DNA of 64,000 bases, taken from NCBI RefSeq assembly GCF_003018115.1, contig NZ_CP027457.1, one strand, 5' to 3'. Origin of the DNA: Escherichia coli (GTDB taxonomy: Bacteria; Pseudomonadota; Gammaproteobacteria; Enterobacterales; Enterobacteriaceae). The position numbers were made by a program. The first letter of the stretch is position 1, and each line of letters begins with the position of its first letter. Shown here piece by piece: positions 22,901-28,900 of this stretch.

Positions 22901-25900
22901 CGGTGGTTGTCGCCCTGGGAGCTATGTTTGGCAAGATCTTACATGAAACCGGCGCAGTCGATCAGATTGCCGTCAAAATGCTCAAGTCCTTCGGTCACAG
23001 CCGCGCGCATTATGCCATCGGCCTTGCGGGGCTGGTCTGTGCGCTACCGCTGTTCTTTGAAGTGGCGATTGTTCTGCTGATTAGTGTTGCTTTCTCAATG
23101 GCGCGCCACACCGGTACGAACCTGGTGAAGCTGGTAATCCCATTATTCGCAGGCGTGGCGGCAGCGGCGGCGTTCCTGGTGCCAGGGCCAGCGCCAATGC
23201 TGCTGGCATCGCAGATGAACGCCGATTTTGGCTGGATGATCCTGATTGGCCTGTGTGCGGCAATTCCGGGAATGATTATTGCCGGGCCGCTGTGGGGTAA
23301 CTTCATCAGCCGTTACGTTGAGCTGCATATTCCTGACGACATCAGCGAGCCGCATCTCGGCGAAGGCAAAATGCCGTCCTTCGGATTCAGCCTGTCGCTG
23401 ATCCTGCTGCCGCTGGTGCTGGTGGGGCTGAAAACCATTGCCGCGCGTTTTGTGCCGGAAGGCTCTACCGCTTACGAATGGTTCGAGTTTATTGGTCATC
23501 CGTTTACCGCGATTCTGGTTGCTTGTCTGGTAGCGATTTATGGCCTGGCAATGCGTCAGGGCATGCCAAAAGACAAAGTGATGGAGATTTGCGGTCACGC
23601 GCTGCAACCGGCGGGGATCATTCTGCTGGTGATTGGTGCGGGCGGCGTGTTCAAACAGGTGCTGGTTGACTCTGGCGTAGGTCCGGCACTGGGCGAAGCG
23701 TTAACCGGCATGGGCCTGCCGATTGCTATCACCTGCTTCGTGCTGGCCGCTGCAGTGCGCATCATTCAGGGTTCTGCCACCGTTGCCTGTTTAACGGCGG
23801 TGGGACTGGTGATGCCAGTCATTGAACAACTGAACTACTCCGGTGCGCAAATGGCGGCGCTGTCGATTTGTATCGCCGGTGGTTCGATTGTTGTCAGCCA
23901 CGTTAACGACGCCGGTTTCTGGTTGTTCGGTAAATTTACCGGCGCGACCGAAGCCGAAACGCTGAAAACCTGGACCATGATGGAAACCATCCTCGGCACT
24001 GTCGGTGCCATCGTTGGGATGATTGCGTTCCAGCTGTTGAGTTAATTACTGCGACAAATTACTGCGAGCTTGCTCGCAGTAATTCATTTCTCTTTTCTCC
24101 TCTCTTCATCTTTTTGATCTCTCTCGCAAATTTACCTGCAAATAATCCGTTCTAATCACTGCCTAAAGATCGCAGGAGATAAAGATGGAAAAGCACGCAG
24201 CTGAATTGCTTTTACAGCGGATGTTAGGAAATACCACCGCTACTTTCAGGGAAGGGCAATGGGAAGCCATAGACGCGGTGGTGAACCAACGGCGAAAACT
24301 GCTGGTTGTCCAACGCACTGGCTGGGGGAAAAGTGCCGTGTACTTCATCGCCAGTAAAATCTTCCGCGATCGCGGCGCTGGCCTGACAATTATCATCTCT
24401 CCTTTGCTTGCCCTGATGCGTAACCAGGTTGCCGCCGCTGAACGGTTAGGTATTACGGCTGAAACGTTGAATTCTACAAACAGAGAAGAATGGCAGCGCA
24501 TTAGCGATAAGTTGCTGCAAGGTGAGGTCGATTGCTTGCTGGTTTCCCCGGAACGTTTGGCAAACCAGGACTTTATCGAAACGGTTTTATATCCTATAGC
24601 CGATCGTATTGGCTTGCTTGTGGTCGACGAGGCGCACTGCATCTCTGATTGGGGCCACGATTTTCGCCCGGATTACCGACGTATATTAGATATTTTGCGC
24701 CAACTACCTGCGAATACCCCTGTTCTGGGTACAACCGCGACAGCGAATAACCGTGTCGTTGAGGATATCCGTCAGCAATTGGGTGATATTGTGATTCAGC
24801 GTGGAACGCTGGCTCGCGAAAGTTTGGCGCTTGATGCCTTAGTCTTAGGTGAACAGTCATCCCGTCTGGCATGGTTAGCAACGGTTATCCCTCAGTTTTC
24901 CAAATCGGGAATTGTTTATACCCTGACTACTCGCGATGCCGAACTTGTCGCCGAGTGGTTAAGGAAAAATGGTATCAGTGCATTTGCTTACTACAGCGGT
25001 GTGACTTGTGAAGGCGCGGAAGATTCTAATACTGCCAGGGAATATCTGGAGCAGGCGTTGCTGGCAAATAAAATTAAAGTGCTGGTTGCGACAACGGCGC
25101 TGGGAATGGGCTTTGACAAACCGGATTTGGGGTTTGTTATTCATTACCAGATGCCGGGGTCTATTGTCGGTTACTATCAACAGGTGGGGCGTGCCGGGCG
25201 TGCTATAGATTCCGCAGTTGGCATATTGCTTTGTGGTGGTGAAGACCGCGCTATTCATAAATTCTTCCGTGAAAGCGCCTTTCCTGCGGAGGCGCAAATT
25301 CATGAAATACTCAACGTACTTAGCGTGAATGACGGTCTTACCTTACGAGGCATTGAACAACGGACGAATCTCCGTTATGGGCAAATAGAAAAAGCACTGA
25401 AATTATTGGTAGCTGAAAATCCATCGCCTGTGGTGTATACCGAGAAATTATGGCGCAGAACAATTGTCAGTTTTTCTCCTGACCATGAACGAATTAACCA
25501 TTTGATGAATCAGAGAAAAAGTGAGCTGGAAGACGTTGAAAGCTATATCACGACCAAGGAGTGCAAAATGCAATTTCTGCGCCGCGCACTCGATGAGCCA
25601 GGTGCCGAACGTTGTGGTAAATGTAGCAGTTGTCTTCAGCGTCCGTTGTTGTCGCCCGACATTGATAGCGGTTTACTCCATGCGGCAAATTTATTTATTA
25701 AACATGCTGACCTGCCATTAAATCTCAATAAACAGGTGGCAGCTGGGGCTTTTACGCAATACGGATTTAAAGGGAACTTGCCTGCGGGTTTACAAGGATC
25801 TACGGGGCGAATCCTTTCTCGTTGGGGAGATTCCGGGTGGGGAAAGCAGGTAGCACAAGAGAAAAAAACGGGGCGTTTCAGTGATGAGCTGGTGGAGGCA

Positions 25901-28900
25901 TGTGCGGAAATGGTTCGCCAGCGCTGGAATCCGCATCCTGAACCAACCTGGGTATGCTGCGTTCCTTCATTAAGGCACCTCGACCTGGTTCCTGATTTTG
26001 CCCGGCGACTGGCGGTGAAACTTGGCTTACCTTTTATTGATGCCATTGAAAAAGTCGTGGACAATCCACCGCAGAAAATGCAGCAAAACCGTTTTCACCA
26101 GTGTCAAAATCTCGACGGGGCGTTTGTGATTACCCCTCCTTTGATGCCAGGTCCGGCGTTGCTGGTTGACGATATCGTGGATTCTGCATGGACGCTGACA
26201 GTTCTGACAGCACTGTTACGCCAGGCAGGTTGCCCGACGGTTTATCCTCTTGCCCTTGCTTCTACCTCGGTAAAAAATTGATGAATCTTTCAGCCAATGC
26301 ACAAGCAACTCTCCTGCTAACCAGCGATTTTTCTCGCGCGGCGGCGAGTGAGTATAAACCTCTTAGTAATAGTGAATGGGGGAAGTTTGCATTATGGCTG
26401 AAGCACCAACGTATCAGTCCCGCCGATCTTCTGGTGGCGCAACCGCAAGAGAAACTTACAGGCTGGAGCGATCCGCGTATTTCTCAGGAGCGTATTCTTG
26501 GCTTGCTGGCGCGCGGTCATAGTCTGGCGTTGGCGGTAGATAAGTGGCAACGCGCCGGTTTATGGATCATAACCCGCGGAGATGCTGATTATCCCGTTCG
26601 CTTGAAAAACCGATTGCGAACGGATGCACCTCCCGTTTTATTTGGCTGCGGGAATAAAGCATTACTGCAAGCGGAAGGTATGGCGATTGTTGGCTCGCGA
26701 GATGCTCCGACTGACGATTTGCGCTATACCCAACAACTGGCAGCGAAACTGGCCCAACAGGGGATTTGCGTTATCTCTGGTGGTGCGCGAGGTATTGATG
26801 AATGTGCAATGGCGTCAGCACTGGAGGCCGGGGGAACTGCCGTTGGCGTATTAGCTGATAGCTTGTTAAAAACGAGCACGTTAGTGAAATGGCGTGAAGG
26901 GCTTATAGCAGGCAACCTGGTGTTGATTTCGCCGTTTTACCCAGAGGTACGTTTCACCGTCGGCAATGCGATGGCGCGAAATAAATATATTTATTGCCTT
27001 GCTGAAAGCGCAATGGTTGTACGTGCGGGAATGACCGGTGGAACGATAACCGGGGCGATGGAGGCATTAAAACATCAGTGGCTGCCTGTGCAGGTTAAAC
27101 CAAATCAGGATATGCAATCAGCCAATTCACGATTAGTAGAAAATGGGGCGTCATGGAGTACTGAACAGGCTGAGAATGTGACGTTCAGACTGCCAGACGT
27201 TCCTGGGCTGATGTATGACAGAGCACTCCGTAACGCTCAACCAGAACTGTTTTCGCTGCATGAAGATGACGCAAATTACGCAGTAATGCCCGCGTATACG
27301 CCTGTCGATTTTTATCAACTCTTTGTGGCGGAACTGGCGATCCTTGCAAAGGAATCGATAAGTATTGAAAGGCTGGCGTCTTGTACTGGTTTAACCATCG
27401 AACAAATTAGTGTGTGGCTGAACCGCGCAGAAGAAGAGGGAAGGGTTATCCGATTGGGCGAAGGTCATTATCAGTTCAGGTAATAAAACAGGTGCCGCGT
27501 CTGGTTGTGTGCAGCACCTGTTTGAACCTTACCCCTTCATCCACATTCGAATGCCGTCGAGGAACATCTGGGTTGCCATCATCACCAGAATCAATCCCAT
27601 CAGGCGTTCAAGTGCGTTCACCCCTTTCTCGCCCAGCAGACGTAAAAATAGCGAAGACTGTAGCAGGATGACAAAGGTGCCGCCCCAGGCCAGCAGCAGA
27701 GCAATCACCAGATGTCCCATCTGATTCGGGTACTGATGAGACAACAACATCAGCGTGGCGAGAATAGTTGGCCCGGCGACCAGCGGAATTGCCAGCGGCA
27801 CGATAAATGGCTCTTCACCTGCCGGAAGCCCGCTGCTATTTCCTGAAGCGCTGGGGAAAATCATCTTAATGGCGATCAGAAACAGAATGATGCCGCCAGA
27901 AATGGAGACGGTTTCCGCACGCAGGCTGAGAAATGCCAGAATTTTCTCACCCGCAAACAGGAACACCAGCATCACCAGGAGAGCAATAAGCAACTCTCGC
28001 ACCATGATTGCCCGCCGTCTTTTCGGTTCAGTATGTTTCAGTACGGACATGAAAATAGGTAGGTTTCCGAGCGGATCCATAATCAGGATCAATAAAACTG
28101 CTGCAGAAATGATTTCATTCATAACTCAAATTCCCTGATAATTGCCGCGGACTTTCTGCGTGCTAACAAAGCAGGATAAGTCGCATTACTGATGGCTTCG
28201 CTATCATTGATTAATTTCACTTGCGACTTTGGCTGCTTTTTGTATGGTGAAAGATGTGCCAAGAGGAGACCGGCACATTTATACAGCACACATCTTTGCA
28301 GGAAAAAACGCTTATGAAAAATGTTGGTTTTATCGGCTGGCGCGGTATGGTCGGCTCCGTTCTCATGCAACGCATGGTTGAAGAGCGCGACTTCGACGCC
28401 ATTCGCCCTGTCTTCTTTTCTACTTCTCAGCTTGGTCAGGCTGCGCCGTCTTTTGGCGGAACCACTGGCACACTTCAGGATGCCTTTGATCTGGAGGCGC
28501 TAAAGGCCCTCGATATCATTGTGACCTGTCAGGGCGGCGATTATACCAACGAAATCTATCCAAAGCTTCGTGAAAGCGGATGGCAAGGTTACTGGATTGA
28601 CGCAGCATCGTCTCTGCGCATGAAAGATGACGCCATCATCATTCTTGACCCCGTCAATCAGGACGTCATTACCGACGGATTAAATAATGGCATCAGGACT
28701 TTTGTTGGCGGTAACTGTACCGTAAGCCTGATGTTGATGTCGTTGGGTGGTTTATTCGCCAATGATCTTGTTGATTGGGTGTCCGTTGCAACCTACCAGG
28801 CCGCTTCCGGCGGTGGTGCGCGACATATGCGTGAGTTATTAACCCAGATGGGCCATCTGTATGGCCATGTGGCAGATGAACTCGCGACCCCGTCCTCTGC

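Follow-up and report, generated by a model that had tools for sequence, protein, structure and literature searches.

A toxin–antitoxin cassette with its own hairpins as a probable long-standing allele of the gntU–yhgN interval in Escherichia coli

The rqlHI operon between gntU and yhgN

Between the core genes gntU and yhgN, the window (the whole 64-kb stretch of Escherichia coli DNA that we analysed) contains only rqlH and rqlI, as seen both in the ORF list and in the annotation of strain F9792, which is identical in sequence and from which the gene annotation was taken (Table 1). Homology to genomes lacking this module ends on the left at the gntU stop codon (TAA, 24043-24045) and on the right at that of yhgN (TTA on the + strand, 27529-27531). 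The ATG of rqlI overlaps the rqlH stop codon (TGATG); the RefSeq model of rqlI starts at 26188 and has 431 aa compared with 400 aa here.

Table 1. Features of the gntU–yhgN interval, in positions of the window
Feature	Position	Strand	Evidence
gntU (gluconate transporter)	24045 (end; start 22705)	+	ORF list; strain F9792 annotation; K-12 comparison
Two direct copies of AATTACTGCGA	24044-24067	+	Sequence; inverted-repeat pairs; junction comparison
Left hairpin, core CTGCGAG-N4-CTCGCAG, then pyrimidine/T-rich tract	24057-24084	+	Repeat search, fold, covariation
Leader of the rqlHI operon, 139 nt	24046-24184	+	Side-by-side leader comparison
rqlH / psyrT, 698 aa, toxin	24185-26281	+	PADLOC PsyrT; Pfam; PMC4670107
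rqlI / psyrA, 400 aa, antitoxin	26281-27483	+	PADLOC PsyrA; Pfam
45-bp spacer with hairpin 27486-27523, between convergent rqlI and yhgN	27484-27528	.	Inverted-repeat search; fold
yhgN (MarC/NAAT-family membrane protein)	27529-28122	-	ORF list; F9792 annotation; K-12 comparison

RqlH aligns with the PADLOC PsyrT profile over almost its entire length, C-terminus included (E = 0; residues 3-697 correspond to profile positions 5-687 of 689). In Pfam, it matches DEAD (1.5e-25) and Helicase_C (5e-14), with RecQ_Zn_bind and Pribosyltran below cut-off; the phosphoribosyltransferase (PRTase) match reaches 15.9 bits against a cut-off of 26.3 bits, and PF00156 is recorded for many homologues that are 65-71% identical. 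RqlH is, accordingly, a RecQ-like SF2 helicase with a C-terminal phosphoribosyltransferase domain and corresponds to the PsyrT toxin. RqlI aligns with PsyrA (1.3e-202, residues 1-400 on profile positions 1-397 of 398) and with DNA_processg_A (1.7e-51) and LDcluster4, making it a DprA/SLOG-like protein; encoded directly downstream of rqlH in the same orientation, it corresponds to the PsyrA antitoxin. Judged by gene content and position, the cargo is RqlHI/PsyrTA, a known toxin–antitoxin and defence system, at the place where E. coli usually has it.

The genes, their order and the overlapping stop and start codons are those of RqlH-RqlI of the ExPEC strain F11 (Russell & Mulvey 2015, PMC4670107). 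According to that paper, RqlH was toxic in F11 without RqlI, the two proteins interacted, and RqlHI is absent from K-12 MG1655; gntU and yhgN do not occur in the accessible part of the text and the junctions are not discussed there, but otherwise we see no essential difference. In the literature, the phosphoribosyltransferase domain of RqlH is described as genotoxic, with RqlI neutralising it. The module has ~96-98% nucleotide identity to the same two genes in ATCC 25922-like (B2-type) strains. In O157:H7 Sakai, rqlH is broken and rqlI intact, which is compatible with rqlH being a toxic gene.

In the literature, RqlHI and PsyrTA are equated. PsyrTA (Sberro 2013; Millman 2022) shares the PRTase-domain toxin and the DprA-like antitoxin, with full-length PADLOC matches here, and is among the two-gene systems involved in phage resistance (Millman 2022, bioRxiv 10.1101/2022.05.11.491447). 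Related PsyrTA systems are phage-protective, and a defence role for the E. coli copy here would be carried over from the literature. The native PsyrTA of E. coli strain NILS69 gave no detectable protection (10.1101/2024.12.20.629700); the locus there may differ. A catalogue of defence systems lists PsyrTA at 'gntU-yhgN' with MGE 'None' (PMC10121019, S3 Table), and gntU-yhgN is not among its 41 numbered hotspots.

Two further groups resemble the operon. The next-closest RqlH proteins (65-66% aa identity) are encoded in type I restriction-modification (R-M) operons of Proteus, Plesiomonas, Alcaligenes and Shewanella (hsdM-hsdS-rqlH-rqlI-hsdR), in which the order of the two genes is the same but a leader and hairpin of their own are lacking, the rqlH start lies ~15 nt beyond hsdS, RqlI has a greater length (437-463 aa), and the context is a defence island rather than an interval between core metabolic genes. 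RqlI also matches the ShosA profile (1.7e-27), and ShosTA likewise combines a PRTase toxin with a DprA-like antitoxin; both ShosTA and the RqlHI/PsyrTA type lead to DNA damage and filamentation (PMC11961720). However, ShosT has no RecQ-like helicase domain, and ShosTA is a separate PADLOC family.

Hairpins at the two ends of the module

The left end of the module had been described in a preliminary description as a perfect 26-bp palindrome (24058-24083) that has a U-rich tract and is accompanied by a 9-nt partial direct copy of its left arm. The hairpin is confirmed, with 13-nt arms (24057-24069 and 24072-24084) that are 100% complementary around a central TT, but it is not strictly perfect because of the T.T centre at 24070/24071. 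The predicted RNA fold is a 12-bp stem capped by a CUUG loop (-16.6 kcal/mol, z = -4.3; equally stable shuffles 0/200), and the hairpin is unique within the window. A terminator consensus scan classified it as terminator-like (12 pairs, 5 GC, tail CATTTCTCTT), but its U-rich tract is interrupted. The direct copy also exists but is 11 nt long: AATTACTGCGA occurs at 24044-24054, where it shares the final two bases of the gntU stop codon, and at 24057-24067, where it forms the hairpin arm. In the junction comparison, this duplicate was present in all E. coli copies and in the E. fergusonii copy, and no copy of AATTACTGCGA was found at the right end of the module. We considered the repeat as a target-site duplication and rejected this, as the left end holds the two copies and one of them is a hairpin arm.

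The leader is 139-144 nt long in all gntU-linked rqlHI homologues (139 nt in E. coli) and contains the conserved boxes TTGAT(C/T) and (C/T)TAA(A)T as well as a GGAG ribosome-binding site; a sigma-70 scan of the leader returned no site on the + strand. In an alignment of the hairpin from six lineages belonging to several genera, 7/13 pairs are invariant, 6/13 are changed on both sides and 97.4% of the cells are paired; the covariation score was reached by 0/500 shuffles, and slid controls scored far below the hairpin. With n=6 sequences, this evidence that pairing in the leader hairpin is kept by compensatory changes is suggestive rather than strong. Because the leader hairpin covaries in the gntU-linked homologues of other genera, we consider the left 'terminator' to be part of the cassette. 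We suggest that it probably ends gntU transcripts and insulates the operon, shielding the toxic genes from read-through.

The invariant 7-bp core of the hairpin could equally be a protein-binding site. In the extended form of this idea, the palindrome would chiefly be an operator in a toxin–antitoxin style of autoregulation, with the C-terminal helix-turn-helix reported as a prediction for RqlI (PMC4670107) as the candidate binder. The half-sites CTGCGAG/CTCGCAG are indeed invariant in the six lineages despite coding regions that are saturated at synonymous sites, and there is an extra direct half-site upstream in E. coli and a partial one in the Superficieibacter-like leader. Nevertheless, we regard a chiefly operator function as unlikely: the outer stem covaries, implying that selection acts on the pairing and not the sequence, the site lies in a terminator-like position (~100 nt upstream of the start codon, right after the gntU stop codon and followed by a T-rich tract), and the RqlHI copies in R-M operons do without any such leader.

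On the right, the previously described hairpin at 27486-27523, in the 45-bp spacer before the convergent yhgN, is borne out. Its 13-nt arms (27486-27498 and 27511-27523) are 92% complementary and enclose a 12-nt loop, and its predicted folding energy is -18.9 kcal/mol (z -3.2) for the + strand and -21.0 kcal/mol (z -5.1) for the - strand. The terminator scan did not list it because the loop is too long. It is probably a bidirectional terminator for the rqlI and yhgN transcripts. The 3' hairpins of the Citrobacter and Silvania cassettes show no homology to it.

Occupied and empty alleles in E. coli

In K-12, the gntU TAA is followed by 56 bp and then by the yhgN TTA, and homology with the occupied allele, which has 3483 bp in place of these 56 bp, stops exactly at the two stop codons. 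The alignment against module-less genomes proposed earlier therefore defines the breakpoints; relative to the empty site, there is no target-site duplication, and the replaced 56 bp have no bases in common with the module. The empty spacer carries a hairpin of its own that is unrelated to the module and resembles neither cassette end, and no remnant of the empty spacer was found inside the occupied allele or vice versa. These data do not agree with the proposal that the two hairpins are host terminators marking an insertion point, as the left one is carried along by the cassette, and the K-12 hairpin is unrelated and wholly replaced.

The site has only these two states in E. coli: among 5426 complete genomes, 1650 (30%) have the module and 3774 the 56-bp spacer, together accounting for 5424. 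Junctions were identical in seven diverse module-bearing strains, and the divergence of the module (1.5-4.2%) tracks that of the left flank (1.3-2.9%) pair by pair. The allele of the window is rare, with only seven genomes at least 99% identical to it, and its leader and rqlH 5' end differ noticeably from those of the ATCC 25922-type allele; the EC18 module is a mosaic. Opposite states occur on near-identical flanks, i.e. in ATCC 25922 (with) and N61/MS20658 (without) at 0.15-0.67% and in S56 (with) and O111:H8 (without) at 0.2-0.35%, and no flank SNPs segregate with module presence. The empty spacer in the ATCC 25922-like (B2-type) background is a variant of its own that has bases in common with outgroups.

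We also considered that the module arrived recently on a mobile element that later lost its mobility genes, with the hairpins as remnant ends or att sites. The accessory status of the module (30% of genomes) and the low GC content at third codon positions (GC3) would fit such an origin: GC3 is 0.469 for rqlH and 0.456 for rqlI compared with 0.589 +/- 0.093 for 47 genes of the window, and is lower in only four other accessory genes. Overall GC content is similar to that of the flanks, as had been estimated by eye (0.493 for the module, 0.519 for the window; 13th percentile of same-size windows), but GC3 is clearly low; low GC3 after long residence could reflect weak codon bias or a foreign origin. 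Integrase fragments also occur among the cargo of the same spacer in one other genus. Against this explanation, there is no integrase, transposase or recombinase gene in or next to the module and no integrase or transposase in the 64-kb window around it, in line with the earlier statement that a mobility gene is absent; the neighbours for tens of kb are core genes in the F9792 annotation. There is no tRNA or tmRNA in 18000-34000, and an Rfam search gave no match. The longest repeats shared by the module ends, 7 nt direct and 5 nt inverted, are at chance level (53% of shuffles reach that), consistent with the earlier statement that no obvious direct repeats exist. The module was located at 1659 places, all of them on chromosomes, the median genome having one, and no plasmid or phage record covers at least 80% of the query, the best being one E. 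coli plasmid with 64.6% identity over 62%. Lastly, module copies within the species diverge by up to 4.2%, in step with their flanks, which already contradicts a recent arrival. A recent mobile-element insertion is, therefore, extremely improbable. The preliminary description had favoured an old, recombination-mediated acquisition over such an event, and the identical junctions, the flank-like divergence and the lack of close copies on plasmids or phages all point the same way; a simple insertion at this site, however, does not hold, as the occupied and the empty state are both old.

The gntU–yhgN site across Enterobacteriaceae

The 56-bp empty spacer aligns with its counterparts in representatives of three other Escherichia species and, in Citrobacter, with the first ~36 nt of the spacers; no E. 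albertii, E. marmotae or Salmonella was among the matches listed in the YhgN scan. The similarity between Escherichia and Citrobacter lies mostly within a REP-like hairpin, which has no other copy within the window. Because REP elements can insert independently, orthology of these empty spacers is likely but unproven.

The outgroup spacers bear on whether the module is ancestral in Escherichia and was simply deleted from the gntU-yhgN interval in K-12-like strains. The sampled E. coli lineages are no older than the cassette, and the same cassette type is found at the same site in other genera. Moreover, the carriers are strains that we take to belong to phylogroups B2, E and F, and the module is missing from K-12 and O111:H8, presumably of phylogroups A and B1. 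Yet the 56-bp spacer is unlike the cassette ends, has its own hairpin and matches three other Escherichia species and Citrobacter, so that K-12 does not carry a deletion scar; a deletion cannot recreate an outgroup-like 56-bp sequence. In addition, empty alleles with their own old spacer variant occur in strains whose flanks hardly differ from those of ATCC 25922 (B2-type). The preliminary description had named ancestry with deletion in K-12 as the finding that would overturn its reading; in that form it was not found, the K-12 spacer being homologous to outgroup spacers. We consider a simple deletion very improbable; loss through replacement by the empty allele is possible, but this amounts to recombination.

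Relatives of RqlH (68-74% aa identity) are encoded immediately downstream of gntU in C. freundii, a C. werkmanii-like strain, Silvania hatchlandensis, a Superficieibacter-like strain and one unplaced enterobacterium. These gntU-linked cassettes are each other's closest relatives, at 68-74% compared with 65-66% for the next group, that of the type I R-M operons. In keeping with an old cassette at this site, synonymous divergence of the module between E. coli and Citrobacter or Silvania is saturated and not below the 0.7-1.4 of the flanks. In an E. fergusonii strain, the module differs from E. coli alleles by 2.3-3.6%, inside the E. coli range, on a mosaic background in which gntRKU is at 4-5% and asd/glgB at 13-15% from E. 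coli.

Alternatively, the cassette could have entered each genus independently, with the convergent terminator region as a preferred target of a trans-acting insertion mechanism. Among Enterobacteriaceae, the gntU-yhgN spacer is hypervariable, ranging from 31 bp to 6.2 kb, and in other genera it holds unrelated cargo, including Fic plus HicB-like proteins, a PAAR toxin, DUF6708 proteins, fimbrial usher genes and an outer-membrane beta-barrel. Module distances between genera also do not clearly track flank distances, the overall r of 0.77 coming mainly from within-genus pairs. However, the gntU-linked cassettes form a single group with a common leader length, the covarying hairpin and the same position right after the gntU stop codon, and there are no att-like repeats. 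Because of this monophyly and the homologous leader, we favour one ancestral arrangement that was then spread or inherited, and regard independent entry as quite improbable.

Taken together, we consider it likely that the gntU-yhgN interval has two long-standing alleles that are exchanged by homologous recombination, namely the rqlHI cassette with its own hairpins and the 56-bp spacer, whose REP-like hairpin is decayed. Strains would acquire or lose the cassette, and exchange it with one another and at times across species, through homologous recombination in the conserved flanking genes, and such exchange would explain why the breakpoints fall exactly on the stop codons without a target-site duplication. 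The E. coli copies would descend from one event before the diversification of the sampled E. coli lineages, and the cassette type would be older still at this site in Enterobacteriaceae. It may well predate E. coli at gntU-yhgN, in which case K-12-like lineages may have lacked it from the start or may have had it replaced by the other allele. With the system already known and the polymorphism old, the locus is ordinary rather than new.

Accessory segments of E. coli without mobility genes can be exchanged via conserved core-gene flanks. The module resembles such segments in its fixed site, in its lack of mobility genes and in the occurrence of both states in closely related backgrounds; it differs in that there are only two states in E. 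coli, with diverse cargo appearing only when genera are compared.

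The rqlHI cassette and its junctions

Across positions 21040-29417 the window carries, in order, gntR, gntK, gntU, two + strand open reading frames (ORF1 and ORF2), yhgN and asd, and this region is 100% identical in E. coli strain F9792, for which RefSeq names ORF1 "RecQ family ATP-dependent DNA helicase" and ORF2 "DNA-processing protein DprA". ORF1 aligns with the whole of the PADLOC PsyrT profile (E = 0) and contains the Pfam domains DEAD and Helicase_C, with sub-threshold matches to RecQ_Zn_bind and PRTase; for ORF2, the start codon of which shares bases with the stop codon of ORF1, the matches are PsyrA (1.3e-202), DNA_processg_A and SLOG cluster 4. 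These two ORFs encode RqlH-RqlI, known from extraintestinal pathogenic E. coli. RqlHI and the PsyrTA toxin-antitoxin/anti-phage system (10.1101/2022.05.11.491447) are one and the same, so the cargo is already known. RefSeq gives RqlI as a 431-aa protein starting inside rqlH; the 400-aa form, which starts at the TGATG overlap, fully covers the PsyrA profile and is also the one called in two metagenomic contigs (L095, L096). In Sakai O157:H7, rqlI is intact and rqlH is a pseudogene: a 1-nt deletion ends its reading frame after some 202 codons, and 29 bp are tandemly duplicated where the PRTase domain is encoded; many O157:H7 genomes give, like Sakai, a longer two-piece module match (3511-bp).

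Homology between the window and K-12 MG1655 stops exactly at the stop codons of gntU and yhgN, which in K-12 are separated by 56 bp (GTTTGTTCGCCCGGTAGTTGTGACGCTACCGGGTTCTTTTCGAAAAACTCTCCTCG). This empty spacer has its own hairpin, a second copy of which was not found within the 64-kb window, and it bears no resemblance to either end of the 3483-bp segment. The preliminary description had left the exact breakpoints to an alignment with a module-less genome; they are the two stop codons, and the difference is a replacement without target-site duplication.

The left hairpin, in the leader after gntU, has perfectly complementary 13-nt arms and a folding energy of -16.6 kcal/mol (z = -4.3, 0/200 shuffles); a consensus scan lists it as terminator-like, with CATTTCTCTTTTCTCC on its 3' side. 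It had been described as a perfect 26-bp palindrome with a partial direct copy of its left arm; the hairpin stands, the perfection does not, since the arms surround a TT centre, and the copy is real but 11 nt long (AATTACTGCGA). Of the two copies, the first shares bases with the stop codon of gntU and the second belongs to the left arm of the hairpin; because both copies lie at the left end, we rejected this repeat as a target-site duplication. The right hairpin lies, as previously noted, in the 45-bp rqlI-yhgN spacer and forms a stable fold on either strand (-18.9 and -21.0 kcal/mol). In agreement with the reported lack of an integrase or transposase, we found no mobility gene in the neighbouring annotation and no match in tRNA and Rfam scans around the module, and direct comparison of the two module ends gave no direct or inverted repeat above chance and no target-site duplication. 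The impression that GC content is similar to the flanks holds overall (module 0.493 vs window 0.519) but not for GC3, which is clearly low in rqlH (0.469) and rqlI (0.456) compared with 0.589 +/- 0.093 for 47 window genes.

Coordinates of features in the window and in compared loci (L-numbers, other genomes with their own coordinates)
Feature	Sequence	Position	Strand	Remark
ataR-ataT	window	1380-2180		between livJ and panM; GC3 0.43-0.49
Lowest-GC part	window	15499-17902		GC3 0.25-0.41
gntU	window	22705-24045	+	
11-nt repeat	window	24044-24054, 24057-24067		
Left hairpin arms	window	24057-24069, 24072-24084		
Leader to first rqlH codons	window	24120-24190		differs in ATCC 25922, KE55 (L085, L086)
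rqlH (ORF1)	window	24185-26281	+	698 aa; PADLOC PsyrT
Sakai rqlH lesions	window equivalent	24700, 25971		
RefSeq RqlI start region	window	26188-26283		start at 26188
rqlI (ORF2)	window	26281-27483	+	400 aa; PADLOC PsyrA
Right hairpin arms	window	27486-27498, 27511-27523		one mismatch, 12-nt loop
yhgN	window	27529-28122	-	
glpD-glgP interval	window	39184-41214		
malQ	window	54878-56961		
Sakai rqlH/rqlI	L083	6140-8112		
E. fergusonii mosaic	L094	1-14097		breakpoint between yhgN and asd, near 10000
Cassette-asd interval	L102 (also L103)	8302-8661		358 bp
rqlH in type I R-M operon	L105, L106	5001-7100		Proteus
rqlH in type I R-M operon	L109, L110, L111	from 3001		Plesiomonas, Alcaligenes, Shewanella
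Plasmid homologue	NZ_OX030731.1	37412-40265		RecQ-family helicase + DprA pair
Spacer cargo	L042, L044			Fic with HicB-like partner
Spacer cargo	L024			PAAR protein with integrase fragments
Spacer cargo	L056			three DUF6708 paralogues beside 1068-aa protein
Spacer cargo	L062			fimbrial usher cluster
Spacer cargo	L078			outer-membrane beta-barrel
Spacer cargo	L006, L024, L026, L030, L035			recurring 146-157-aa protein, no Pfam match

History of the two alleles

The module is present in 1650 of 5426 complete E. coli genomes, always on the chromosome (at least 80% of the query covered in one place in 1641), and the 56-bp spacer in 3774; because carriers of one or the other make up 5424/5426 genomes, the locus has essentially two states. 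The junctions are identical, down to the 11-nt repeat and the two hairpins, in all seven module-bearing strains compared across the identity range (F9792, Sakai, SMS-3-5, ATCC 25922, KE55, EC18 and S56), which points to one origin of the E. coli module. Pairwise module divergence (1.5-4.2%) tracks that of the left 3 kb flank (1.3-2.9%), so that the module and the core genes beside it have been diverging for a similar length of time. Flank SNPs linked to module state, as a marker of an imported tract, were absent within 700 nt on either side, and opposite states occur on near-identical flanks, as in ATCC 25922 (occupied) vs N61 and MS20658 (empty; 0.15-0.67%) and S56 (occupied) vs O111:H8 (empty; 0.2-0.35%). 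On the ATCC 25922-like background, which we take to be phylogroup B2 and hence "B2-type", the empty spacer was not imported from K-12: it is a variant of its own (TTTA, C, C) with bases in common with the spacers of outgroup Escherichia. The EC18 module joins a window-like 5' part to an ATCC 25922-type rqlI, so that module alleles also recombine with each other. Taken as a whole, these sequence comparisons depict the E. coli module as an old polymorphism of presence and absence, shuffled through homologous recombination. The preliminary description, which had favoured an old, recombination-mediated acquisition over a recent mobile-element insertion, was right in substance, given the lack of repeats and mobility genes and the flank-like divergence. 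In ATCC 25922 and KE55 the 3' half of the leader clearly differs from that of the window, with one extra base, as do the ribosome-binding region and first rqlH codons.

The opposite possibility is that the module is ancestral in Escherichia and was deleted in K-12. A scan of species-representative genomes with a YhgN query gave at least 80 enterobacterial loci, and further homologue loci were reached by exact-protein look-ups; E. albertii, E. marmotae and Salmonella were absent among the YhgN matches listed. All three non-coli Escherichia representatives among these matches, with flanks 4-8% from the window, have a 56-bp spacer homologous to that of K-12, and over its first ~36 nt the K-12-type spacer can also be aligned to Citrobacter spacers, which start with a REP-like sequence. 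Because of this homology to outgroup spacers, the K-12 state is an old allele and not a deletion scar. Since both alleles are old, the history is poorly captured by "inserted here" and by "deleted in K-12" alike.

The closest RqlH relatives outside E. coli/Shigella (68-74% aa identity) lie, in every case examined, directly after gntU: in C. freundii, a C. werkmanii-like metagenomic contig, Silvania hatchlandensis, a Superficieibacter-like contig (with extra genes between cassette and yhgN) and one unplaced enterobacterium. The species representative of C. werkmanii itself has an empty, REP-type spacer; Citrobacter is therefore polymorphic as well. Between E. coli and Citrobacter/Silvania, synonymous divergence is saturated in the module and 0.7-1.4 in the flanks, indicating that the module lineages are not younger than their hosts; because saturation shows only this, we dropped a dN/dS dating of the split. 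Among genera, module distances have no clear fit to flank distances, and a module-flank correlation (r = 0.77) was dropped as evidence of between-genus vertical descent because it rests on within-genus pairs. The cross-genus history is either vertical descent with repeated allele replacement or old between-genus transfers. In the unplaced lineage of L102 and L103, the cassette is followed by a short interval and asd, yhgN being apparently lost or reduced to a 58-aa fragment.

The cassette does pass between species: in an E. fergusonii assembly (L094, GCA_041950025.1) it is present with the junctions seen in E. coli. The module there diverges from E. coli alleles by 2.3-3.6%, which is within the E. 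coli range, and the flanks by 4-5% in gntRKU and 13-15% in asd/glgB. The locus is a mosaic, about 95-98% identical to E. coli from yhhX to yhgN, with the module closest, and dropping sharply to 78-88% from asd onward.

The next RqlH relatives (65-66% aa; Proteus, Plesiomonas, Alcaligenes and Shewanella) are embedded in type I R-M operons ordered hsdM-hsdS-rqlH-rqlI-hsdR, and their RqlI is longer (437-463 aa). The gntU-linked cassette may have come from such an operon.

The leader hairpin

In all six gntU-linked lineages, a leader of 139-144 nt starts right after the gntU stop codon, the hairpin core CTGCGAG-N2-4-CTCGCAG is invariant and a pyrimidine/T-rich tract lies 3' of the hairpin. The outer stems differ yet pair (ATTA/TAAT, ATTG/CAAT, AGCG/CGCT, ATAAG/CTTAT): 7 of 13 pairs are invariant, the other 6 have changed on both sides and 97.4% of cells are paired. 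None of 500 shuffles reached the covariation score and slid controls scored far lower, making the covariation among six sequences suggestive. In R-M operons, rqlH starts about 15 nt after hsdS without a leader, so that the hairpin is confined to the gntU-linked clade. Hairpins at the 3' end show no homology from one genus to another. We conclude that the hairpins are cassette parts and not host terminators marking an insertion point.

We suggest that the left hairpin would be the cassette's own terminator of gntU transcripts and would also keep read-through out of the toxic rqlHI operon. That the invariant core is an operator is a live alternative; as a general RqlHI operator the palindrome was rejected, four more distant homologues examined being without the leader. 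We consider it unlikely that RqlHI is jointly a very old, genus-crossing polymorphism under selection for and against it and equipped with the hairpin as a dedicated control element. On that reading, selection in both directions would act on a costly defence/toxin module, and the hairpin, instead of being a plain terminator, could serve as an operator for RqlI or as an attenuator setting gluconate-induced gntRKU read-through into the toxic operon. A sigma-70 promoter scan upstream of rqlH gave no + strand site; by eye, TTGAT and TAAT-like boxes are conserved in the leaders, and we do not claim them as a promoter.

The gntU-yhgN site and its significance

In PMC10121019, S3 Table gives "gntU-yhgN" as the location of PsyrTA in finished E. 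coli genomes and "None" as its MGE type, and the site is not one of the 41 numbered hotspots; for native PsyrTA of E. coli NILS69 phage protection was not detectable (10.1101/2024.12.20.629700). Both system and site are thus known. A non-exhaustive literature search gave no main text naming gntU and yhgN together, the locus being seen only in that supplementary table, and, in the texts it reached, no account of the junctions, same-site homologues in other genera or the leader hairpin; a same-site cassette in several enterobacterial genera with its own covarying hairpin may therefore be unreported. The locus is a tidy, checked case of a toxin-antitoxin/defence operon that lacks mobility genes and acts as an intergenic-spacer allele, apparently moving by homologous recombination through conserved neighbours, even into E. 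fergusonii; allele exchange via these neighbour genes would account for stop-codon-to-stop-codon boundaries without insertion scars. It also cautions against taking flanking hairpins for insertion sites. The same-site homologues and leader hairpin extend known biology without changing it and could guide study of how expression of genotoxic RqlH stays low.

Among plasmid and phage records, none covers at least 80% of the module query; at 64.6% nucleotide identity, a distant homologue on one E. coli plasmid spans 62% of that query. Across the Enterobacteriaceae loci listed, the gntU-yhgN spacer is between 31 bp and 6.2 kb long, most spacers being REP-like or hairpin sequences and some holding other cargo, and the site generally tolerates and exchanges accessory DNA. 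Elsewhere in the window, ataR-ataT is another small accessory two-gene module (toxin-antitoxin) between core genes, and the lowest-GC part contains an Hcp1/TssD-family gene (yhhZ in K-12), yrhA, yrhD and yrhB. In F9792, malQ is annotated as frameshifted, and the interval from glpD to glgP contains a hypothetical gene and a truncated substrate-binding-domain pseudogene.
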